Source: Candidatus Moraniibacteriota bacterium
GTDB taxonomy: Bacteria; Patescibacteriota; Minisyncoccia; Moranbacterales; UBA1568
Direction: 5' to 3'
Assembly: GCA_963778555.1 (NCBI GenBank)
Contig: CAVZUR010000004.1
Coordinates: forward strand, 101,112 to 165,111
DNA: 64,000 nucleotides
Shown here: piece by piece, positions 19,901-32,232 of the stretch
Layout of the letters: the number at the start of each line of letters is the position of its first letter
Numbering within the stretch: the stretch's first letter is position 1
Position numbers and translations under genes: made by a program
The notes under the pieces: model-generated
Seen by the model: the letters and a program-made list of their open reading frames with translations, nothing else
Told to the model about the DNA's origin: nothing
Databases searched by the model: none

Positions 19901-21259
19901 TGCTGTCCCTACCGGCACGTAAATAGCTCCGTAAAACGATACAGACGACGCCATTCATATACAAAACCGGGTCGTTGGCCAGCCGAGGAATCATTGTAGG
20001 TGACGCAGACATGTTGACCAGGCATTGATGTGGTTATCCCCCAGTTGGCCGTGAGCCAATTCGCATTAGTTCGTGGTAAAACTTCAAAATAGTATCCAGA
20101 GCATTCCCGACTAGCCACATTGCCGTAATCTGAAATGACCAGCCACGCCGATCTTGAATTACTTGGCAGCAATTTGAGCCCGAGGTAATAGGAATTGACT
20201 GTCCGGATAGATCCAGGCGCAGAACGGATAGGTTCACTAGATCATCGATGATAGCGGCTGATCCCGCATTCACCATAATCAGCCGTTCCATCAAAATTAA
20301 GCGCTTGGCCAAGTTTGCCTGGCACTTTTGGCGGGCCGCTCGTCAAGCGTCCCCGTGTTCCTCGCTCCGCTTCTGTCATACGCCGTGGTCGTGCTGTACA
20401 TATCCTGGGCATTGAAGGACCAATAGCCTTTCAAGTCCCGTATCGACGCCGGTGGGGGTAGTGAGGCGATAGAGGTTGGCGATCTCTTCTCCTGAGAGAG
20501 CGCGGTCATACACCCGCGCTTCATCGAGGGAGCCAGCGAAGGGCACACCGTTGTCGGCTTCGGCGCCGAGACGGAAAGCCACCGCATTGGCCAGGGTGCC
20601 GATGTTTCCGATGGTGCCGGTATCGGTGGCGCCATTGGGAGCGCCATTGATGTAAAGCTCGGTCCCAGTCGCCGAGTCTTGATCCCAGACGAAGGCGAAG
20701 TGATTCCAACCCGCAGCGGTGAAGGTAGAGGCGGAAGTGACGGAGTACTCATCGTGGCATCCGAGACTTCGCAGATGAGGGCGTCGGCGGCGGAGATGTA
20801 GCAGAGATAGCCGGTATCAGCGGCGGTGATGCCGTTTCGTTTGGCGATGATGGTATCGTCGGTGGTGAAGGTAGAGCGGTTGAACCAGCCGGTCAGGGTG
20901 AAGTCTTCAGTATCAGCGAAGTCAAGGGTGGCCGTATCGGCCGTGGTGGCATAGTCATCGGTGCCGTCAAAGGTGATACCTGAGCCAATCTGTCCGGTGG
21001 TCCAGGTGGGGCCATTGGTGAGGGTGAGGGAAGCGATGGCGTTGGTGGAGGAGTCAGCGGCGGCGGTACCGGTGTTCTCGTCGAGGGTGAAGTAGCCGGT
21101 GAGGCCAGAGTCGAGACGGCCGGTGCCTTGGGGGGTGGCAATGGAGGTATTGGTTTGCTGTCCGGCCCGAGCGGAGAAATACCAATAGCCAGCCCCCAAC
21201 CCTAGGAGAATGGCGATAATCCCTAGCCACTGCCATGTACGGCCGCTAGTATATGTCAT
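16938..21259 (-). CDS. giant surface protein with N-terminal TM anchor and tandem LamG_3 / concanavalin-like lectin domains; reading frame broken many times, middle repeat degenerate
   Basis: N-terminus MTYTSGRTWQWLGIIAILLGLGAGYWYF; recurring FDG(S/E)IDEVRVYNRALSAAEIKALY LamG_3 signature at the end of each repeat; ORF fragments 20297-21373, 17465-18718, 16938-17567 plus many short ones. Confidence 0.6.
17470..21130. repeat. tandem direct repeat, period about 1.4 kb, about 2.6 copies (copy 1 about 17470-18860, copy 2 about 18860-20300, copy 3 about 20300-21130); copies 1 and 3 are near-identical over about 760 bp (17540-18297 vs 20375-21130), copy 2 is highly divergent
   Basis: Landmark ...gtcatacgc(t/c)gtcgtcgtgctgtacatatcctgggcattgaaggacca... 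recurs near 17541, 18926 and 20375; a long identical stretch accgttgtcggcttcagcgccgagacggaaagccaccgcattggccagggtgccgatgtttccgatggtgccgg occurs at about 17700 and about 20536. Confidence 0.8.
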
Positions 21260-21525
21260 AGAGCTAGACCCGTTAGAGACAGGAAGCGTTTCAATCGATT
21301 CTTTAGGTAGCGTTTTCCCATACCAGTCTTTAGGTACTTTTCTCGAGTGAAAGCATCGTGCACATCGATACAAGCTTCATAATAAATGATAGCAAATGGA
21401 CCTCGGCCGTTGGTAGATGATACTTTTCCAGCAGCATGCTCATTGAAACGCTTCCGCATGTCTTCGGTACAGCCGGTATACCATTTTCCATCCTTTTTGC
21501 TTTTGAGCACGTAGGTGTAAAACAT
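21256..21525 (-). CDS. GIY-YIG nuclease family protein
   Basis: MFYTYVLKSKKDGKWYTGCTEDMRKRFNEHAAGK GIY-YIG motif; the stop overlaps the ATG of the giant surface protein (ATGA). Confidence 0.75.
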   Translation of the reverse strand: MFYTYVLKSKKDGKWYTGCTEDMRKRFNEHAAGKVSSTNGRGPFAIIYYEACIDVHDAFTREKYLKTGMGKRYLKNRLKRFLSLTGLAL

Positions 21526-21831
21526 AGCTGTCTCTAACGGGGCGAGGCGATGGCGAGGGCGCCTAAGATGAGGCCGATGTATTGGTAGGTACGATACCGA
21601 GTGAGGGACATGTGAGGTGAGGGATGAGGGACTAGGGGTGGAGAACAAGAGAAACAGGTTCCCAAGCGAGGGAGTGTGTTGGTTCTAGTTTATCATCTTA
21701 TCGAGAACGCCACATCCTCCCCACCCCTCACTTTCCACTGTTTCGACGTATTCCCACGGTCGTAGGAATAATAGAGATTACATTTTGTATGAGTATGATG
21801 AAAAACTCAGAGCCCGGTCAAAAAAATCTAC

Positions 21832-22077
21832 CTAGAGCTGGCCACTGTAAACACTCGAGAGGCCGGACAAGCTGGAGAGAATAAACGGCACCGCGAACAT
21901 GAGTACGACCAGGGGCAAGAGGACAACGGCGAGCTGCATGATGAAGCTCCAGAGCATGTACTTGCGCGTCTTCTCCACAGCCGCGTGAATGAGCTCAAGT
22001 TTTTCGTCCTGCGCTTTGATGGCAGACAGGAGAGCGGATTCATCCATAAGGATAGATAGCGCAATAGACTTACTCAC
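21832..22077 (-). CDS. small membrane protein (81 aa, C-terminal TM)
   Basis: ORF with hydrophobic C-terminal segment; its start overlaps the end of the upstream gene by 8 nt (translational coupling). Confidence 0.45.
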   Translation of the reverse strand: MSKSIALSILMDESALLSAIKAQDEKLELIHAAVEKTRKYMLWSFIMQLAVVLLPLVVLMFAVPFILSSLSGLSSVYSGQL

Positions 22078-22912
22078 TTATTGTAGCAGCATCGAGCGCA
22101 GCCGATGGCAGATTCGATTCACCCCCTCCCAAGCTGGGTTCAATTGGCGTAATTTCTGGCAATGGAATATTCAGCGGTTCGATCGGGAGCGCGTCGGGGC
22201 CAGCCGGCGGATCAATGGGCGGCGGTAGCAAATCTAGTGGGAGTACCAAAAGTAGCGGCTCAGTACCATCGGACGGACCCGGCCCGCTGGCATCCGGAAT
22301 CGTCTCCGCTGACTTCACAGCCGGTGCGCCGCCAATTGTCAGGGTCAGGTCTGGGAGCGCCGCCTCATCATCCCAGCCCGGATCCGTAGCTTCATACGGT
22401 GCTTGCCAAGCCAAGAAGGTGAAATGGACAATGCAGGATACACCAGTATCGAAAGACGCTTCCGCTGGCAGAGAAAAGATGAACTGCCACAGTTCGTCGC
22501 TACTCGGTGAGAGCAGGCTTCCGTTCACTACTCCAATACCCGCCACACTGCCGGCATACGCGGTCGAGCCAGCACGCAACGCCGAAATTTGGAGCGCCGC
22601 GCAAACACCCGCATCGCCCGTAGTTGAGACAATCGAATGGTACCGGAAGGTATTCGCGCCCTGATTCTCGACCGTGCCGCCATACTCGACGCTGCCGCCA
22701 GCAATGATTTCTGCCGGTGCGACAGGATTGCCAACCGCCCCGATCGCTGAAAGATCGATACTCCCGCCATTGATCGCGTTCATACCGGACAACGCCGAAG
22801 CCGTGTAGAGTGACCACGTATCATGCACCACCATGACCAACACAAACAACCCGACAATGCCCAGGGAAACGGTGCCAAGCGGGCGATGAATTGTATGTTT
22901 GTTTTCGGGCAT
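22070..22912 (-). CDS. membrane-anchored secreted protein with Pro-rich C-terminus (candidate anchoring or accessory protein of the SipW locus)
   Basis: N-terminal TM LGIVGLFVLVMVV, Gly/Ala-rich globular region, PPPIDPPAGPDALPIEPLNIPLPEITPIEP tail; role inferred from position only. Confidence 0.55.
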   Translation of the reverse strand: MPENKHTIHRPLGTVSLGIVGLFVLVMVVHDTWSLYTASALSGMNAINGGSIDLSAIGAVGNPVAPAEIIAGGSVEYGGTVENQGANTFRYHSIVSTTGDAGVCAALQISALRAGSTAYAGSVAGIGVVNGSLLSPSSDELWQFIFSLPAEASFDTGVSCIVHFTFLAWQAPYEATDPGWDDEAALPDLTLTIGGAPAVKSAETIPDASGPGPSDGTEPLLLVLPLDLLPPPIDPPAGPDALPIEPLNIPLPEITPIEPSLGGGESNLPSAALDAATISE

Positions 22913-22927
22913 AACGATTTCGGACGA

Positions 22928-23575
22928 CTAGACGATTTTCCGCCGCCGAATCGGGGCGGGTGGCGGGGTGACAGTCGGGCGAGGCGGCGCGACCGATCCA
23001 GCATAGACGGTTTGGGAGAAATTCACGTTTTTGACCTCGGCAACGGTTTCAGCGGCGATCGGCTGGCGGCGCTGTCGCAAGAGCCGCCTGGCTTCAGCGG
23101 CGATGGAAATGAATTCGCTCAGGATAATGAGTGCCGCCGGCACCACGATCAGCCAGATGAAGCCCGTCTTGGTCTGGGCATAGGCCACGGGATAGCCGAG
23201 GTATGGAATCGCGAGCAGCGTTTTGCCGACGATGTCTTGACGCGCCACGGTGACAGGATCCGGATCCTCATTGGCATCGCCTTGAGTGAGGAACGTCTGA
23301 CCGGTCGCCGTGTCGCGCCGCTCGATGATGCGGTGGGTGACCGACTGCTTGTCGCTCGTCGCGACGGTCACGATATCTCCGACCGCGTAGGCGGGCCGCG
23401 CCGAGACGAAGATGAGACTTCCCGTCCGAATCGCCGGCTCCATCGATCCGGACCGGACCGTGAAAAGCTTGATCGTGTTCGGTAATGGCAAGAGCGACGA
23501 GGCCATCACCAAGACGAAGCCGATGACGATGACCGCCATGAGTCCTTGCACGATGGAACCGAGGCGCTTCAGCAT
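22928..23575 (-). CDS. sipW: signal peptidase I, SipW type (S26B, archaeal/ER-like)
   Basis: VRSGSMEPAIRTGSLIFV catalytic Ser box, N-terminal TM, C-terminal TM; 215 aa. Confidence 0.85.
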   Translation of the reverse strand: MLKRLGSIVQGLMAVIVIGFVLVMASSLLPLPNTIKLFTVRSGSMEPAIRTGSLIFVSARPAYAVGDIVTVATSDKQSVTHRIIERRDTATGQTFLTQGDANEDPDPVTVARQDIVGKTLLAIPYLGYPVAYAQTKTGFIWLIVVPAALIILSEFISIAAEARRLLRQRRQPIAAETVAEVKNVNFSQTVYAGSVAPPRPTVTPPPAPIRRRKIV

Positions 23576-23590
23576 AGGCGACGGAAAACG

Positions 23591-25037
23591 TTATGGCGCG
23601 AAGGGTGTCGGGTTATTGCGATGTTGTTCGACTTCGAATTTGATATCGGCTTCGAAGATGTCGGTCTGCGCCTCATTCCCGGTCGCGATGGGCAGATTCC
23701 AGCCGATACCGAAGTAGTACGTCGTCGATGCGGCCATGCGGCCGTCTTGAGCGAGGCCATTACAGAGCGTGTAATTCGTGTGTCCATCTGGGATCGTGCA
23801 GCCATGCGCCACGTAGGCTGCCGCCAAACCCTGCCAGATATTATGCGTTTCGCTCGGAGTATCCACCGCGCCTGGAGCAACCAGTACCATCTCATCACCC
23901 TGTTGGATATTGTCACCCTCGCCGAGGTCGGTGCCCTTGCCTTGGAACCCGGGCGTGGCACCCTCGTCCAGCCAGATCGAGAAATTCAGGTTCTGGCGCA
24001 ATTCTCCGAGTCCGACGCCAGGGTACCGCGCAGTTGCCACTTTCCGCCACCTGCTCGGAACTGGTGCAGGTATTGTCATCATCGGCGGTCACGTTGACCA
24101 CCATCCGTCCCCACGCATCATTGTTGTAGACATGGAGCGACACGGTATCCTCGCCCACATCCCCTGGTTTCACATCATCGAAGTTGAAGAATTTATGCAC
24201 ACCGTTCTGGAGGTCGGTCAGATCCCACGTCCCGTCGCAGGGCTGGCCCACTAATTCGCCGCTCACCGACGTCGGGCATTCGAGCAGATGGACATCAACG
24301 GCATCGAGAAATGTCCCGAGTGAATTCTCGGTCCCGAGATCCGCAAACGAGATCTCGGTCGAGGCGCCGGTCGCGAAGAAATCATAGGTATGCAGACTCC
24401 AGTCGATTGATCCGCCGCCCGCGCTCGACAATGTGTCGAGCAGCAAGCCGTTTGCCTTCACCTCGAGTTCATTCTCCGTCGCGGCGGTATTGGGCCGCGG
24501 CGCAAACTGGAAGGAGAGACGGTATTTCTTGCCCGCGACAGTCGGGATGGACTGCGCGATGCGAATGGAGGCTGGTTCACCACTCAAGGGATCGCTCGGA
24601 CCACCCCAATCAGAATCAAGTTCCGTATACTGGTCGCCTTCGAACGCGGCGCCCAAGACGCCTTCATGGTATTCGATCGTCGCGACTGCCGGCTTGCCGC
24701 TCGGATCCACCCACTGCACGTCCCATACCAGGCCGCTCGCACCGTCAGGAAACACCTCCCACTGGTTCGGGTCGGTCACTTCCGGATTCTCAAAACCGCC
24801 GTTGACGATGAGATTACTGCCGACGGCATGACAAGGCGCGCCTTCGAGCGCCCAGACACCGCCGGTACAGACCAGCCCATTATAGTGCGACTCGCTGTCG
24901 ACTTTCAGATCAAGCGCTCCCGCGGTGAAGAGATTGCCCGTCGAAGTCTCGGTATCCGAGAAAAACGCATAGGTTCCCCCGCCGACCGCGGCCGCCGCGG
25001 CCAAGATGATGAATGAGCTTTTGGCTATTTTCCACAT
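23591..25037 (-). CDS. TasA/camelysin-like secreted protein paralogue 1 with SipW-cognate signal peptide and an inserted carbohydrate-binding-like jelly-roll domain; one frameshift near 23913-24082
   Basis: MWKIAKSSFIILAAAAAVGGGTYAFFSDTETSTGNLFTAGALDL; insert starting NGGFENPEV; shared core FFNFDDVKPGDVGEDTVSLH and a C-terminal VEQHRNNP motif. Confidence 0.75.
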
Positions 25038-25086
25038 ACGCTTTCGATTTAGGATTATTCCCTCCGGCCCCGCAACCACGTCCGCG

Positions 25087-26421
25087 CTACGGTGATACGC
25101 CTGTCACACTCACTCCATCGATATACGCATGATTGGTCCCGTTCGTCCCGACGAGGACAAAGCGGACTTTGACACTTGGCTTATTGTCAGCCGCAGGCGA
25201 GAGTGAGAACGTCTTGGTCGTCCAGCCCGACTCGCCGATGACGGTCTCGAGCGTGGTCCACGACGTTCCGCCATTGACCGAATACTCAACCGTCAGCGTT
25301 TGGGGATCGACGGCACCGCCCGTATCGTCTGTCTTACGGTCATACTTGAGCACGATAGTGTGATAGCCGAGCGTGCTGAAGCCCGGGGTCACGAGCGACT
25401 CGGTGTGGCCGTTCGAACTCGAGGCATCGAGATCGGCATTCTTGGTACACTCCCGCTTCTCTTCATCTTTGTCATCGTCATACCCGCCTCGATTGGTCCA
25501 CTTTTTGTGCCACGAACGTTCGTACTCCTTGTCTTTGGATTTCACGCACTGGTTGAAGTCCTCAGAGAAGAGGGTCGAAGTCGTCGTTTCCGGCGGCTCC
25601 TCGCCGCTGCCACCGCTGCACAGGAATGAATTGTTGCGCGACTGCGCTACCGTAAAGGACACATCCGCCGTGATACCATCGCTTTGAACATGATTGCCGA
25701 CGGGCGCGCCATCACAGGTGAAGCCTGTTCCACGGACCAATGGGCCGTTGGTGCTCCCCGCCAATTTTCCTTTGCCATCTTGCGCTTTCGGCGCCCCGGC
25801 CAAAATGCCGAAACACCAGGCCTTGCCGATATACTTTGTCACCTCTGGCGCCAAGGGCCCCGATCCGCCCCAAACATTGTGTGTAGAATCCGCCAGTGGC
25901 CACAAGGCACCGTCAAAGATATCTTTCGCCAAACCTTCCTTGAAAATCGTTTCTCCGCTCTCATACACATTGTCGCCATCGTCCGCCCAGAAAGAGAAGT
26001 ACAGATGGTTCTGCAATTCGCCGTCATTGGCGCCAGTGGTCGGATCGACGGACACTTCCGGTTCGGGCTGACCATTCTCCGGCGTCGATTGGAAATCAAT
26101 CGCCATGCAGCTCCAGGCCTTGTTATTCAAAACATGCAAGGAAATCGTATCCTCGCCGATATCCCCCGGCTTCACGTCGAGAAAATTGAAGAAGAGTTTG
26201 CCCGCGAGCTTGCCGAGTTGCCACGATGTCGCCGGACTGGCAACGAGTTTGCCGTCATCATTCGTGACATAGGATTCATTATCGACTTTCAGCTCGATCA
26301 CGCCCGAGGCAAAGGTATTGCCGACAGACGTCTCTTGGTCGACGAAGAAGGAGTACGTCCCCGCCCCGGCGGCGGTCGCGACCAGGAGTACCGTGAAGAG
26401 TCCTTTCGTTATCTTCCACAT
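25087..26421 (-). CDS. TasA/camelysin-like secreted protein paralogue 2 (intact, 444 aa) with C-terminal beta-sandwich-like extension
   Basis: MWKITKGLFTVLLVATAAGAGTYSFFVDQETSVGNTFASGVIEL; core FFNFLDVKPGDIGEDTISLH ... AQSRNNSFLC; about 150-aa extra C-terminal domain. Confidence 0.8.
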   Translation of the reverse strand: MWKITKGLFTVLLVATAAGAGTYSFFVDQETSVGNTFASGVIELKVDNESYVTNDDGKLVASPATSWQLGKLAGKLFFNFLDVKPGDIGEDTISLHVLNNKAWSCMAIDFQSTPENGQPEPEVSVDPTTGANDGELQNHLYFSFWADDGDNVYESGETIFKEGLAKDIFDGALWPLADSTHNVWGGSGPLAPEVTKYIGKAWCFGILAGAPKAQDGKGKLAGSTNGPLVRGTGFTCDGAPVGNHVQSDGITADVSFTVAQSRNNSFLCSGGSGEEPPETTTSTLFSEDFNQCVKSKDKEYERSWHKKWTNRGGYDDDKDEEKRECTKNADLDASSSNGHTESLVTPGFSTLGYHTIVLKYDRKTDDTGGAVDPQTLTVEYSVNGGTSWTTLETVIGESGWTTKTFSLSPAADNKPSVKVRFVLVGTNGTNHAYIDGVSVTGVSP

Positions 26422-26507
26422 ACGCTACCGTTACAGTTTATTTCGGTTTCCCCCGTGCCACCGCCGGGATTGTTCCGGCGGATGGCATGAGGCAAAGATC
26501 ATTCAGA

Positions 26508-27984
26508 TTAGTTCTCGAAGTCGGTCGTTTCGCCGTTGAATTCGACCCAGTCCACGAAGCTGTTTTCACCAATCGGACCAGGGTGGCCCACCCGCACGCC
26601 GAGGAAGGAGTCGGTTGAGCGCGTTTCCGCGCCAGGATAATCGGCTAGGATCTGATTCCAGGTTTTCGGTGTCGTACCAGGCTGCACGTTCGGAGCCGGC
26701 CAATTGGCGCCGGAGTAGGTCCACAGGGCCGTGCCACCGTTGATAGCATCCACGGTCGTCCACGTGTTGACGACTACGCCGGTCGGCACCATCACGAGAC
26801 GGCGCTGAAACGTGTCGCTATTGTTGAAGTCGATATTGAAGTGGAGGAAGGGCGTCTCGGCGGAAGCTGAGGCGTCATAAATCCGATACTTCAAAGAATT
26901 AATATTAGCGAGCTTCACATCCTTGTACTTGTAGGTCGCGATGTTGTAGCGCGGATTGATACCAGTATCTAGGGTCATCTGTGCCGCGCCAACCGCTTCC
27001 GGACCAGCGACGATGTTATTCACGCCGCCGGTTCCGCTGAATTGGTTGAGCGTCATGACTGTGTCGTTGGTGTCATTGTAGAAGAGCCACTTGTTCACAT
27101 TGCCGATAACATCGCCAAAGCTCTGGGCCAGATCGACCCGAGCGAACTTCCACGATGCCGCTTTGGCCGACAAAGGTCGGGAGCGAAGAACAAAGAAAGC
27201 CGGGATTATTGCGAGTCTGCACGGCATAGAACGAGACATCCGCGAGGATACCGTCGGTCTGCGCGATGTTATTGTTGCCCGAGCCGTTGCAGGCATAGCC
27301 AGTACCGCGGACAAGCGGTCCATTACTCCCGGTCTTGCCCAGCCCGTCTTGATTGATTGGCACACCGATCAGGGTCCCAAAGCACCAGGCCTTGCCGACA
27401 TAGCGCGTCGAGTTGCCGAGTATCGGCGTCCCGTTCAAGGAATCCGCGACCGGCACCCAGACGCCATTCAAGAGATTGCTCGCGGTCCCGACCCACTGCG
27501 TGATCTGGGACTCATCCGCCTCATAGACATTGTCCCCGTCGTCGTTCCAGAACGCGAAGTTGAGGAAATTCTGCAATTCTCCACCCTGTGCACCATCCGT
27601 CACGTCGCCCGCGTCGCCTTCCGGTTCATTGATGCCGTTATCCGGCTTGGCCGTGATGGCTGCGGTCATGCAGGCGTAGGCGTCATTCGTGCCCGGATGA
27701 AGCGAGATAGTGTCCTCGCCGATGTCGCCAGGCTTCAGGTCGCTGAAACTGAAGAACAGTTGATTGGTCACATCCGACAAAGCCCACGAGTTCGTCGGGC
27801 TCGCCACCAAGACACCCGCGTTATTCGTCACATAGCTCTCATTGTCGATCGTCAAATCGATGTCTCCGGCCGTGAAAGTGTTACCGGTCGACGTTTCACT
27901 GTCCGAAAAGAACGAATATGTCGCTCCGCCCACCGTAATCGCTACCGCCAGTACGACGAGACTGCTTTTCAGGATTTTACCCAT
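26508..27984 (-). CDS. TasA/camelysin-like secreted protein paralogue 3; the C-terminal extension domain is probably joined through a frameshift near 27130-27190
   Basis: MGKILKSSLVVLAVAITVGGATYSFFSDSETSTGNTFTAGDIDL; core FFSFSDLKPGDIGEDTISLH ... VQTRNNPGFLC; downstream overlapping ORF 26508-27365 encodes a further domain. Confidence 0.7.
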
Positions 27985-28446
27985 ATGCGCGCTTACGGAT
28001 TATGAACCTCTGATCCCGCGCCACTCCGGGACGATCCCGGAATGACGCAAGGTGAGAAGCGGCTTCTCCCCTCCCAGAAGAAACTCTCAGAAAACCTAGA
28101 CTCGGCTGCCAAGAGAACTACAACTGCTGGATGTACAAAGTTCGTAATTCGCACGTGACGTTTCACCGGCTAGACATTATTGTTGCGGTACCGTATCGCC
28201 GACTTCCGGCGTCGCATTCCGCTGAACGTGCATAGACAGGTTAGGATTTCCCGCCAGGATCACTCAGAATAGACCTCGGACAACGTATAGACACCAGTGG
28301 TAAGTAGCCATGTGACGTCGCATTACCTGTCAATACCACAGATGAGCGCCTGGGCCCATCAGCTGTAAGTGTGAAGTCAGCGTCAACGCCTACGATTTCT
28401 GGCTGGAAGTAACAATCTTATCAAGGTCACTCGTACGCTGTTTCGT

Positions 28447-29377
28447 CTACACCCGCGGAGTGCAGAGGAAGTTCGGGTTGTTGCGGAACTGCTCGACCCG
28501 GAAGGCCACGGTCGCTTCGAACATGTCCGTCTGGACGATATTCCCCAAGGTGGAACCATCACAGGTGATGGTGTTGAGTGGGAGACTCACTACCTGTGTC
28601 CCCGCACACCAGGCGAGACCGATGTAGTTCGTCACACCGCCGTCGATCGGACCGACCGCCGGGAAGGTGCTGGAATCGGCCAGGGTATAGGTCTTGCCAC
28701 CGAGCACATCGCTCGCGGGACCTGACTGGTTCGAGAAGAGGAGCGGTTCCACTTCCTCACCCTGCCACACATTGTCACCTTCACTCGCGTCATTGTTCCC
28801 TTGATCTGCTCCGAATTCTGCCAACCGGGGTCGATTACCCTGATCGAGCCAGGCCGCGAATTTGACGTTTTGCGCCAATTCGCCGTCCAAGAGGTCCGCA
28901 TCTGGCTCAGCCGACCGTATCGAGCTCCGCCACTTCGGCGTCTTCCGGCTCCGTGACCGTCACATCGTCGTTCTTCGTCAGCGTCACATCGATACAAGCC
29001 CAGGCTGGGTTGTTGTTGATGTGGAGCGAGATGGTGTTCTCTCCCTGGTCTCCCGGCTTGATGTCGGAAAAGTTAAAGAACTTTTGGGCGCCCAAATCGG
29101 TCGCCGCCCAAGTACCGTCACAGACGGTCCCCGCCGCAGGATAATGCCCGGCTGCCGGTGTAAATCCGACTTCTGGCTGCCACCAGTAATTCCCAATGGC
29201 TTCGTCGGGATTCTCCACGCAGACCATGTTGTTATAGTGCTGCTCGCTATCGACCGTCAGGTCGATCGCCCCGGCGGTGAAGGTGTTGCCGGTCGAAGTC
29301 TCGGTGTCCGAGAAGAATGAGTAGGTCGCTCCGCCGACGGCCACCGCGACCGCGAGAACCACAATCCGCTTTTCCAA
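28447..29377 (-). CDS. TasA/camelysin-like secreted protein paralogue 4; one frameshift near 28890-28907
   Basis: MEKRIVVLAVAVAVGGATYSFFSDTETSTGNTFTAGAIDL; core FFNFSDIKPGDQGENTISLH ... VEQFRNNPNFLC. Confidence 0.7.
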
Positions 29378-29883
29378 ATCTTTTGCATATGGTTTTACTA
29401 TTTGTTTACGACGTTCTTCTCTCAGCCTGACCCCGGCCGCACATCGACCTGTCCGCTGCTCTGAATGTTTGAGTCAGAGCCAACGGATCCACGCAGTTCT
29501 CCCGCCTCGCTTCTTGAGAATCCGTTCAACTGAAACAGGGAACGGGTTCCGATAGAATCGGATCGAGAGAAAGGGGTATCGGTTTGAGAGGAACGTTTTC
29601 TGTCTGTCTCTTTGTTTTCGCTTTCTCGCACTCGACCGGTGCATTTCTATTGCGGATATAAGAAGTCACAAGCGCCCTCCTTGCTCTTGTTGACTTTGAT
29701 TTTTATGTTTCTTCTCCCTCGATGATTTTTTCGAGCTGAGAAGTATTGTTTGCCCTCCAACAAACGGCTATCGCTTACAGAATAGAACGAACTGAAAATA
29801 AGTCAACACGGAAAAAATATTTCTGACGCCTTCAGCCTCGCGGCAGAATACAAAAATAGTACGCAATGAAAAAAACTGGACGT

Positions 29884-30814
29884 TCAAAACCCGACGAGCT
29901 GTACTTCCTCGCGTAACTGGACACCTGAATCGGTTCGGACCCGTTGTTTCACCAGACTCGCCAGCATGATGACGTCTTCGGTCGTAGCGGTGCCCGTATT
30001 CACGAGATAGTTCGGATGGCGCGGACTGATCTGGGCGCCGCCGACTTTCTCGCCGCGCAGCCCCGCGCGATCGATGAGCCAACCGGCCGGGAGTTTGCCG
30101 TCTTTCGCCGCCATTCCGGTATCCTGGGCGAATTCCGTCCGAAGTGTCTCGTCCACGACCGTCGGATTCATGAAGAATGATCCGGCACACAACGCCTTCT
30201 GCGGATGTTTGGCTTCGCGCTTGGCCAATGTCTCCTCTGAAATGCGATGCAATTCCGATGCGTCGCCCTCCGCGAGACGCAGCTGCGCTGAGAGGATGAC
30301 GAATTCCGGATGCGTTTTGAAAAAGCTGGTCCGATACTGAAAGTCGCATTCCGACTGGGAAAACTCTTTCAATGCTCTCGATTTGCGATCATAGGTTTTC
30401 ACGTTGACCACCCGATTGCCGATCTCCATCCCGAAAGCCCCAGCATTGCCCGCGCAGTGCGCCGCCCACAGACCCCGGGATGCCGGCGAGCCGCTCCAAA
30501 CCGGCGAGACCATGACTATTGACCAGCTCGACGAGCGCAAGCAGATTCGCCCCCGCATCAGTGTAGATGTCCTGACCCGCGATCCGCGACGCGGCATTTG
30601 CGACCCGGATCACAAGCCCCCGGAAACCACGGTCAGCGATGAGGAGATTGCTCCCGCCAGAAAAGACGAAAGTCTTCAGTCCATTGTGCTCCGCGTATTC
30701 CAGCGCTTCGATGAGCTCCGGTGCCGTCGTCACGGAAACGAAAAAATCGGCCGCCCCGCCGAGGCGGAAGGTAGTAAACGGCGCCAACGGGACCTCTCGT
30801 TCGATGGATAGCAT
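29884..30814 (-). CDS. murB: UDP-N-acetylenolpyruvoylglucosamine reductase (MurB), one frameshift near 30390-30600
   Basis: N-terminal PLAPFTTFRLGGAADFF...SGGSNLL and C-terminal MurB domain in the adjacent frame. Confidence 0.85.
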
Positions 30815-30833: not shown

Positions 30834-32232
30834 TTATTTCTGCAGGATGGCGGCGGCGATTTGCCAGACATCGCCTGCGCCCATGGTGATGATAACATCC
30901 CCGGCCCGCATCTCGCGAACAATTTTTTCAACAAGCGCCGCGCGGTCCGGCGCATATTCGGCTTTCCCGGGCACGTATTGATTGATACGGTCGACCAGAT
31001 CCAGTCGCACTGACGCCGCCATGCTGCTCGCGGGCACTGCCATAGATGTCGAGGATCGCGACGCTCTCCGCCCGCTCAAAACTGGACGCGAATTCCTCCA
31101 GGAGCGCTTTTGTCCGCGTGAACGTATGCGGATGAAAGACGACCAGAAGACGATTGTCCGGATACAAGTCATGAAAGGCGGCCAGGGTCGCCTGAATCTC
31201 GGCCGGATGATGGGCGTAATCGTCGTAAACCAAAGCACCTTTTTTCTCGCCGAGGTATTCGAAGCGTCGTTTGGTACCAGAAAAGGCGGCGATCCCTTTC
31301 CGGACTGCCGTGCTGTCGAGTTTGAGGTGAAGTGCAACAGCGATCACTGCGAGTGCGTTTTCAACATTGTGCCGACCGGCGAGCTGAAGACGGAACGGGC
31401 CGAGCCGTCCGCCCGCATATTCGACCGAGAACTCCTGGAGCGCACTGTGCTGCCGCTCTGCTTCCGGAAGAATTCGGTAATCCACGGCGCGAACACTATT
31501 TCCCTCAAGAAAACCATAGGTGTACCGCGGCGCTGACGCCGACCGCGAAAGAAATTCCGCCCGGGCATGGTCGCCGCACACGACGAGAAATCCATGCTTC
31601 GGCACCCGCGCAATGAAAGCTGAAAAGACCTTTTCATACGCATCGACTGTGGGGAAAAAATCCGGGTGATCCCAATCGACGCTCGTAACGATGGCACCGA
31701 ACGGATGATAAAGCGCAAGCTTGTTCTGGTACTCATCTGCCTCAATCACGAACAGCGGGCCGCGGCCAGACAACGCGCTTCCGCCCCAGGAGCGGATCTC
31801 ACTTCCGATGATCGCCGACGGATCAGTCCCTGCGGTACGGAGGACATCGGCCAAGAGCGCGGAGGTCGTCGTTTTACCGTGCGAACCGCAGACCGCGATG
31901 GTCATCCGTTCCCGGGTCAGCGCTCCCACGGCTTCCGGATAGGAATAGAGGGGCTTCCCGCTCGCTTGCGCGGCCGCGAGTTCAGGATTATTTTCCGCCG
32001 TATACGCGGTCGAATAGACAAACACGTCGACTGTCTTCGGCAGATTCGCGGGATCAAACGGCGTTTTGACCAGAATCTTGAGCCGCTTCAAAATGGCATC
32101 CGTATAAAAGACTTCCGCCGTATCCGAGCCGGTGACTGTTTTTCCGAGACCCGAGAGCAGCTCGGACAACGCCGCCATACCCGCTCCCTTGATTCCGATG
32201 AGGTGCCAGCGGCGATACTCGAGAAAGGCCAT
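30834..32232 (-). CDS. murC: UDP-N-acetylmuramate--L-alanine ligase (MurC), C-terminal frameshift
   Basis: HLIGIKGAGMAALSELL Mur ligase N-terminus; C-terminal DVIITMGAGDVWQIAAAIL lies in the frame of ORF 30834-31337. Confidence 0.85.

Follow-up and report, generated by a model that had tools for sequence, protein, structure and literature searches.

How the ultrasmall bacteria of the candidate phyla radiation (CPR) recognize and attach to their hosts is largely unknown. This question is raised by a stretch of 64,000 nucleotides (nt) from a Candidatus Moraniibacteriota bacterium (GenBank assembly GCA_963778555.1, contig CAVZUR010000004.1, positions 101,112 to 165,111), here called the window, in which four tandem genes (paralogs 1 to 4) encode acidic secreted proteins whose N termini resemble that of TasA, the fiber subunit of Bacillus subtilis, and which lie beside a gene for a SipW-type signal peptidase. 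An original prediction, made from the letters and open reading frames (ORFs) of the region, held that the four proteins share a polymerizing core and differ by an inserted domain like a carbohydrate-binding module (CBM) and by C-terminal beta-sandwich extensions. Is there one core, are the additional domains genuine in a region with broken reading frames, and what might such proteins build? We find that the four paralogs have a common core carrying three predicted beta-sandwich modules from unrelated sequence families, that the same arrangements are encoded by intact genes in relatives, and that modules have been shuffled between core subtypes. The locus is probably one for a decorated surface fiber.

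A common core with three different modules

A four-way MAFFT alignment of the paralogs after frame correction recovered one core in all of them, with conserved blocks along its length, as the original prediction had supposed. The N-terminal block consists of the signal peptide followed by GTYxFFxDxETSxGNxFxxGxxDL; paralog 4, for example, has a SipW-type signal and the donor-strand motif FFSDTETSTGNTFTAG. The further blocks are FFNFxDxKPGDxGEDTxSLH, GEL..F..W.D, GDN, WC.G, and QTD...A..F...Q.RNN. The donor region, which follows the predicted cleavage site, is 61 to 82% identical between paralogs, compared with 39 to 54% in the remaining core. Two core subtypes can be distinguished: paralogs 1 and 4 have HYNxxVC...CDGTW, and paralogs 2 and 3 are 54% identical in the core (residues 1 to ~272 and 1 to ~266, respectively). 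All mature proteins are acidic (isoelectric point [pI], 4.05 to 4.6), the predicted mature N terminus displays an aromatic-2/acidic-4 signature, and Pfam and NCBIfam scans turned up no catalytic family in the cores. The ends of the proteins also fall where they had been placed from the ORFs: paralogs 1 and 4 stop 6 to 10 residues after the RNN motif (RNNPTPFAP in paralog 1 and RNNPNFLC in paralog 4), and paralogs 2 and 3 continue beyond it into tails of ~170 and 217 amino acids (aa), predicted to be of the beta-sandwich type.

The insert of paralog 1 begins with NGGFENPEVTDPNQWEV, includes KKYRLSFQFAPRP, and lies wholly in one frame with the N terminus and the middle of the core. Relative to the shared core, the extra segment covers about residues 57 to 255. 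The insert is therefore present as predicted, but its proposed length of about 200 aa was slightly generous, since the domain proper takes up residues 75 to 249, a net gain of ~175 aa over paralog 4. Its assignment to the DUF642/choice-of-anchor C group, a CBM-like beta-sandwich of the galactose-binding type, is supported by predicted fold and by profile matches that stay below the curated cutoffs. The insert matches the whole choice-of-anchor C profile TIGR04362 (positions 1 to 157; E value, 6.2e-18; 65.5 bits, with a cutoff of 120) and reaches 26.6 bits against DUF642 (PF04862; cutoff, 27). Many insert-bearing orthologs have a precomputed PF04862 match, and NCBI names one of them, P0121, “DUF642 domain-containing protein.” An AlphaFold2 model of paralog 1, built with 58 homologs, has a mean predicted local distance difference test score (pLDDT) of 85.8, rising to about 95 over the insert. 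The insert in this model has a galactose-binding-domain-like/CBM beta-sandwich fold, with CBM4-2 matched by Foldseek at an E value of 1.2e-6 and superposed at 2.4 Å over 141 residues. Cys57 and Cys267, which flank the insert, are invariant in the 58 homologs, Cys69 and Cys254 are found in more than 90% of them, and paralog 4 has a 32-residue Cys-flanked loop at the same site. The insert probably occupies a surface loop with a disulfide staple at its base.

The tail of paralog 2 matches the Reelin subrepeat B family PF21471 (E value, 4.2e-4; 20.5 bits, with a gathering score of 27), and reelin (E value, 0.011) was the sole match in the PDB searches with the single tail sequences. Among the tails of paralog 2 orthologs, 55 of 60 match PF21471 at an E value of ≤0.01 (best, 1.5e-7), and 6 match F5_F8_type_C; judged from sequence, the resemblance of this tail to carbohydrate-binding modules is weak. 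The tail of paralog 3 gave no sequence match in Pfam, NCBIfam, or the PDB. Its predicted structure (pLDDT, 91.6; predicted template modeling score, 0.87) was placed by fold search among CBM-like beta-sandwiches, and its profile recovered 1408 proteins at an E value of ≤1e-3, 831 of them at ≤1e-10, from 1.84 billion cluster representatives. Many of these proteins are 1000 to 3300 aa long (up to 3334), with the domain at the N terminus, internal, or at the C terminus, and with Big_13 (Ig-like), Beta_helix, SpaA, SdrD_B, and PG_binding_1 as partner domains. The paralog 3-type tail is a widespread extracellular module without a matching Pfam family and a candidate for a new domain model. The three modules of the window belong to three unrelated sequence families and are CBM/galactose-binding-like beta-sandwiches (putatively so for the paralog 2 tail), and resemblance in fold suggests that the paralog 1 insert and the paralog 3 tail may bind carbohydrates.

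Frame breaks and intact orthologs

Paralogs 1, 3, and 4 are interrupted in the window by single-base indels (Table 1), which were located by three-frame translation and tblastn with orthologs from related contigs. In paralog 4, the start MQKIWKSGL (ATG at 29388), which is that of the orthologs, is out of frame with the remaining signal peptide. A second indel, the loss of one base near 29355 to 29365 (~29360), is probable, and the TTG at 29377, which the ORF finder takes as the start, is unlikely to be the true one. Once corrected, paralog 1 has 79% full-length identity with P0121 (QQR79175.1, 485 aa), an intact ortholog, paralog 3 has 69% identity from end to end with P0241, also intact (P0241 and P0242 are 492 and 495 aa long), and paralog 4 aligns continuously with P0284 (58% identity, residues 18 to 309). 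The paralog 1 ortholog in the four closest related loci (L001 to L004) is a single ORF of 489 aa, and intact orthologs span 483 to 489 aa. Paralog 2 has about 70 full-length homologs at 49 to 79% identity. No indel creates the insert or a tail: the insert is in frame with the flanking core, and the intact orthologs are 485 to 495 aa long. This rules out chimeras of unrelated ORFs joined by frameshifts, an artifact of which the original prediction had warned.

Just upstream, murB is split, with FAD_binding_4 and MurB_C in separate ORFs in different frames, and murC loses its frame inside Mur_ligase_C, being cut at profile position 75 of 127. Because these essential genes are also broken, and because the orthologs of the paralogs elsewhere are intact single ORFs, the four single-base indels in paralogs 1, 3, and 4 are most likely assembly errors. 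The assembly of this contig is error prone, and ORF-based annotation there is unreliable. At least six single-base indels fall within about 9 kb (four in the TasA-like genes plus those of murB and murC).

Module shuffling across related loci

According to homology searches, each of the architectures in the window is a conserved orthologous group in Patescibacteria. In a survey that represented each GTDB species by a single genome, 79 loci were found; nearly all belong to CPR lineages, and one comes from a Nanoarchaeia metagenome-assembled genome (MAG). A hidden Markov model census identified 154 full-length core genes in 75 loci. The census loci were picked by a pattern derived from paralog 1, which biases the proportions of the architectures: 58 of the 154 genes encode a bare core, 73 have a C-terminal tail of ≥75 aa, 16 have an internal anchor-C/CBM insert, and 10 have another internal insert (3 of the 26 insert-bearing genes have a tail as well and so appear twice). 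The tails form at least 20 BLAST clusters, the largest of which is SpaA_2 prealbumin-like, and five have an anchor-C domain at the C terminus. Loci contain one to four core genes, two or more architectures occur together in 46 of the 75, and a SipW homolog adjoins the core genes in 71. A SipW-linked cassette with interchangeable lectin-like domains on its subunits is thus conserved and common in CPR bacteria.

The same modules are found on different core subtypes in other genomes, in agreement with the modular diversification that had been proposed for the four paralogs. P0173 (MBC7836580.1) combines a core of the paralog 2/3 type (45 to 49% identity) with a C-terminal domain that is 52% identical to the paralog 1 insert. 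One module thus sits within the core in one subtype and follows the core in another, which shows that domains have been shuffled. P0284 (QQR79177.1) has a paralog 4-type core (58%) fused to a paralog 3-type tail, and it shares one 1.2-Mb Moraniibacteriota contig with P0121, the paralog 1 ortholog. In L001 to L004, the gene at the position of paralog 3 has a paralog 3-type core (58%) and an unrelated tail of ~335 aa.

Some relatives depart further from the window. One gene of the group with other internal inserts (L030:5611-8292, 893 aa) carries a Laminin_G_3 (ConA-like lectin) domain within its core as well as a SpaA_2 tail, and it matches the TafC model NF052521 (E value, 4.9e-14) with 52 bits, far below the equivalog cutoff of 410. 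The SipW homolog is 400 to 613 aa long, instead of ~170 to 250, in L008, L013, L042, L043, L046, L051, L053, and L056 and likewise in L067, L070, L083, and others. This length suggests a peptidase fused to another domain, and accessory-domain fusions have been reported for the AbpX and Tafi peptidases. CPR-type cassettes were also found in MAGs titled “uncultured Bdellovibrionales,” “Gammaproteobacteria,” and “Acetobacteraceae” (L005, L007, L011, L017, L020, L025, and others), some of which are probably mislabeled bins. Besides the Nanoarchaeia locus, one cassette lies in a MAG titled “Thermoplasmatales”; the archaeal cassettes might reflect transfer between CPR and DPANN lineages.

Similarity of the core to TasA

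All four paralogs reach the gathering score (22.5 bits) of PF12389 (Peptidase_M73), with 32.4, 22.6, 31.3, and 39.5 bits for paralogs 1 to 4, and these matches span only profile positions ~5 to 53, i.e., the signal and the first strand. The SipW-dependent-type signal model TIGR04088 (cutoff, 19) gives 31.0 bits for paralog 1 and 29.4 bits each for paralogs 3 and 4; it was not reported for paralog 2 in the NCBIfam scan. An hhalign comparison of a core-only alignment (A3, 55 sequences) with B. subtilis TasA, in the sequence checked to be identical to PDB 8AUR, aligned the signal peptide and donor strand with a probability of 91.7% (E value, 7.6e-7). In BLASTP, paralog 4 and TasA share two colinear blocks, one at the N terminus (E value, 3e-4) and a weak one at NLKPGD (E value, 0.01). 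The core profile recognizes a relative, L019:8943-10046, with 100% probability, and this relative also matches PF12389 from position 4 to 147 of 196 (E value, 8.8e-10). A second profile (A2) gave only a chance match in the PDB, and the fold matches listed for the two-domain paralog 1 model do not include TasA and are dominated by CBM. Placement in the TasA superfamily has good support from the N-terminal export and donor region and from the organization of the locus; for the rest of the core fold, such placement is no more than plausible. The term TasA-like, as we use it, refers to the likeness of the first ~50 residues and of one weak second block.

A proposed decorated fiber

We propose, with moderate confidence, that this is a surface-fiber locus in which SipW-processed subunits polymerize through donated strands, with lectin-like modules on display. 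The paralogs would be exported by Sec, and the adjacent archaeal-type peptidase would cut just before FFSDTETS, as judged by alignment with TasA, which is mature from A28 (AFND...). Cleavage would bare the highly conserved N-terminal strand, and the freed strand could enter the beta-sandwich of a neighboring subunit (donor-strand complementation), yielding an acidic, possibly Ca2+-dependent fiber. Having near-identical donor regions, the four paralogs could co-assemble into mixed fibers or follow one assembly rule. Their cargo would differ, with a bare core in paralog 4, a CBM4-like domain on a loop of paralog 1, and two unrelated C-terminal beta-sandwiches on paralogs 2 and 3. The modules may serve as lectin-like heads with several glycan or surface specificities, for instance, for the host cell envelope or a matrix polysaccharide. 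We infer the cleavage site, polymerization, the positions of the subunits in the fiber, and ligand binding; polymerization by the core is suggested by its N-terminal donor-strand homology to TasA together with the adjacent SipW-type peptidase. The donor region (residues 21 to 39) is the sole low-confidence stretch (pLDDT of <50) in the monomer model of paralog 1, as expected for a strand that needs a partner. For Ca2+-assisted donor-strand complementation in the AbpX branch of the TasA superfamily, a low pI and the aromatic-2/acidic-4 signature are reported to be either critical or typical (10.64898/2026.01.04.697558).

Several observations weigh against the decorated fiber. The hhalign similarity between the core alignment and TasA ends after 46 residues, and a full-length profile (A1) found no sequence match in the PDB. 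The matches of the modules to TIGR04362, PF04862, and PF21471 all stay below the cutoffs, and CBM-like folds serve also in protein binding or as spacers. Finally, L001 to L004 contain no bare-core gene in the DNA covered (~0.4 to 2.3 kb upstream of the first paralog).

The paralogs might instead be secreted or surface-retained monomers, i.e., lectins or camelysin-like enzymes with CBM appendages, that have a SipW-dependent export signal and a beta-sandwich scaffold in common but form no fiber. Such proteins would fit the concentration of TasA/PF12389 similarity in mostly the first ~50 residues, the failure of fold and PDB sequence searches to retrieve TasA, the usual occurrence of CBM-type modules as appendages of secreted glycan-active enzymes, and the presence of genes for a glycoside hydrolase of family 81 (GH81) and a glycosyltransferase of family 2 (GT2) next to the locus in relatives. 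We nevertheless regard monomers as unlikely. It is the segment past the cleavage site that is most conserved and has the aromatic-2/acidic-4 signature, neither of which a signal peptide alone requires; the cores lack any detected catalytic family; tandem paralogs with a dedicated peptidase are a hallmark of the TasA, Tafi, and AbpX fiber loci; and in the relative L019:8943-10046 the PF12389 match extends far past the donor strand. Another arrangement, to which we give still less credence, would build the shaft from paralog 4 alone and use each decorated paralog once per fiber, as a tip adhesin or terminator like FimH or TafC. Paralog 4 is indeed the sole bare core in the window, many of the loci with mixed architectures pair a bare core with decorated genes, the decorated relative L030 with its Laminin_G_3 domain matches the TafC tip model, and Tafi offers a precedent (PMC12337348). 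All four paralogs, however, keep the donor-strand motif and a complete core, so that none looks like an obligate terminator, and the 462 nt that part paralog 4 from the others would allow separate regulation. A bare shaft with decorated tips is also not universal, because L001 to L004 are without a bare-core gene in the DNA covered.

The frame breaks admit a different view of the whole locus, in which the indels are real, as pseudogenes or slipped-strand on/off switches, and only paralog 2 is made. Four single-base indels in three of the four genes, with the three resolved ones at doublets or triplets of one base, could be read in this way, and the truncated forms, P0126 (374 aa) and P0254 (303 aa), are the products that the source assembly encodes, on the same 402,909-bp contig as the intact paralog 2 (P0001). 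Runs of two or three bases are too short for classical slipped-strand switches, however, and the neighboring essential murB and murC are broken likewise. The frames past the indels are still open and 57 to 79% identical to intact orthologs, unlike those of old pseudogenes, and the overall pattern is consistent with that of an error-prone assembly. A decaying or phase-variable locus is therefore very improbable.

Locus organization and neighboring genes

The six genes of the cassette are all on the minus strand between 22070 and 29388, in the order paralog 4, paralog 3, paralog 2, paralog 1, sipW, and p0 (Table 1). From paralog 3 on, the gaps are 86, 49, 15, and 15 nt, and the signal peptidase gene starts 15 nt downstream of paralog 1. 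The 462 nt between paralogs 4 and 3 (27985 to 28446) contain no coding-strand ORF of at least 60 aa. Because of this gap, paralog 4 may perhaps be its own transcription unit, regulated apart from the other paralogs. A scan of 21600 to 29900 for consensus promoters and terminators was uninformative, and tRNA and Rfam scans gave no match in the region.

Table 1. Features of the cassette and its surroundings in the window
Feature	Positions	Strand	Description
Paralog 4	28447-29388	minus	Core-only TasA-like subunit, ~313 aa after correction; ORFs 28907-29377 and 28447-28890
Paralog 3	26508-27984	minus	491 aa once one G is removed; ORFs 27073-27984 and 26508-27365
Paralog 2	25087-26421	minus	Uninterrupted ORF, 444 aa
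Paralog 1	23591-25037	minus	481 aa once one C is removed; ORFs 23913-25079 and 23591-24082
Signal peptidase I, archaeal/SipW type	22928-23575	minus	215 aa; TIGR02228, 98.3 bits
p0	22070-22912	minus	280 aa; orthologs in L001-L005, same gene order
Paralog 1 insert	24291-24815	minus	Choice-of-anchor C/DUF642 CBM-like domain, residues 75-249; TIGR04362, DUF642, fold search
Paralog 2 C-terminal module	25090-25605	minus	Residues ~273-444; Reelin-subrepeat-B-like/discoidin-like beta-sandwich, PF21471
Paralog 3 C-terminal module	26511-27186	minus	Residues ~267-491; CBM-like beta-sandwich, predicted structure
Paralog 1 frameshift	24014-24029	minus	GGTACCCTGG, one extra C in CCC run
Paralog 3 frameshift	27128-27147	minus	CTCGGGTCG, one extra G in GGG run
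Paralog 4 frameshift	28904-28918	minus	GTCGGCTGA, one extra G in GG
murB and murC	29884-30814 and 30834-32232		Both frame broken; Pfam domains

The peptidase exceeds the cutoff (51.85) of the NCBIfam model TIGR02228 (sigpep_I_arch) and matches SipW_Bacil with an E value of 1.9e-29, under the equivalog cutoff of that model. The last gene, p0, encodes a protein in which TWSLYTASALSGMNAINGGSIDL comes after an N-terminal membrane helix and the C terminus is rich in proline; TWSLYTASALSGMNAINGGSIDL resembles the signal/donor motif of the paralogs. Its syntenic orthologs in L001 to L005 are 49% identical, p0-like ORFs occur in about 15 of the 79 related loci in addition to L001 to L004, and neither Pfam nor NCBIfam gave a match. 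The idea of p0 as a divergent fifth paralog or a TapA analog found no support, as comparison with the core and TasA gave no significant similarity (hhalign probability, 1.5%; BLASTP E value, >1). From the position of the gene, its product may be an accessory, anchor, or nucleator protein.

Beyond p0, the window encodes a small membrane protein, a GIY-YIG protein (21256 to 21648), and a frameshifted ORF (20297 to 21373). In L001 to L004, the closest relatives, an AbiEi/AbiEii pair lies ahead of the cassette, and GH81 (endo-beta-1,3-glucanase-like) genes and a GT2 cellulose-synthase-like gene come after it.

Novelty and significance

TasA-superfamily fibers have been characterized structurally in Bacillus and several archaea. 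In Patescibacteria, TasA homologs have so far been noted as a Pfam distribution (PMC9245690), and archaeal loci with several subunits, dedicated peptidases, and tip proteins are known (PMC12337348; 10.64898/2026.01.04.697558). Proteins related to the paralogs have automatic database names such as “DUF642 domain-containing protein,” “TasA family protein,” and “SipW-dependent-type signal peptide-containing protein.” In the literature searched, whose coverage was limited, we found no account of a CBM-like domain nested in a core loop, of module exchange between core subtypes, or of the prevalence of the cassette across CPR bacteria.

The locus and its ~75 relatives provide candidates for adhesins and host range determinants in CPR bacteria. 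A domain nested in the loop of a fiber subunit is a natural example that may help the engineering of decorated protein fibers, and the paralog 3-type tail, a large extracellular domain family with 1408 representative clusters, is worth a model. These findings do not overturn current views, and their interest is moderate, chiefly as a source of candidate adhesins and host range determinants of episymbionts. A broader and more tentative suggestion, which we consider rather doubtful at present, is that CPR bacteria/Patescibacteria and some DPANN archaea build combinatorial TasA-like fibers assembled by donor strands. One conserved polymerizing core would carry lectin-like modules (of the anchor-C/CBM, Reelin-B-like, unnamed CBM-like, LamG, SpaA, and beta-helix types), set into loops or attached as C-terminal heads and exchanged between subtypes, and the module repertoire of the resulting poly-adhesive appendages would determine the host cell surface to which an episymbiont can attach. 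If so, such cells would have these fibers as another organelle of attachment, in addition to type IV pili.

Comparison with known systems

One close parallel is the tapA-sipW-tasA operon of B. subtilis (TasA fibers, PDB 8AUR/5OF1; PMC9674648), which likewise places a dedicated SipW-type peptidase beside the subunit gene. TasA and the subunits of the window are acidic, secreted, beta-rich proteins with a signal peptide and donor strand and a KPGD block. Each locus also encodes one more small protein, TapA in B. subtilis and p0 in the window, but p0 has no detectable similarity to TapA or TasA. The window differs in its CPR host and in having four paralogs instead of one major subunit. Its cores of about 250 to 290 aa have extra loops and conserved cysteines, their sequence similarity to TasA is marginal past residue ~50, and three of the subunits carry CBM-like domains, whereas TasA carries none.

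Haloarchaeal Tafi (TafA/TafE pilins, TafC tip, TafF anchors, and TafD peptidase; PMC12337348 and PMC11821415) also combine several structural paralogs with a dedicated peptidase, and in both Tafi and the CPR cassette the structural genes gain and lose domains while the peptidase is conserved. Tafi have a multidomain tip protein with a variable outer domain, and the CPR relative L030 matches the TafC model; the proteins of the window gave no TafC match at an E value of ≤0.1 and no TafF or DUF5305 match in NCBIfam. Tafi proteins are Tat secreted in most haloarchaea, in contrast to the Sec/SipW-type signals of the window proteins, whose modules are CBM-like and are borne on otherwise complete subunits. 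The AbpX/AbpA bundling pili (10.64898/2026.01.04.697558; PMC9245690) share with the window a pI of ~4 and the aromatic-2/acidic-4 mature N terminus, and their loci also encode a signal peptidase, minor subunits, and predicted tip proteins. Their subunits, however, are single-domain jelly rolls seen by cryo-electron microscopy, with no reported internal CBM insertion, and the AbpX-locus peptidase has ten transmembrane helices, compared with the short peptidase of the window (215 aa).

For the modules, the choice-of-anchor C (TIGR04362)/DUF642 (PF04862) and CBM4/CBM61-type domains share with the paralog 1 insert a full-profile match, the NGGFE start, and a CBM4-2-like beta-sandwich, but the domain in the window is nested in the loop of another domain instead of being free-standing or terminal. 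In concept, the decorated subunits are like the FimH-type two-domain adhesins of chaperone-usher pili, which join a donor-strand-assembled pilin domain to a lectin-like domain. The folds are unrelated and no chaperone or usher is involved in the window, where the lectin-like domain is C-terminal or inserted and each subunit keeps its own donor strand.

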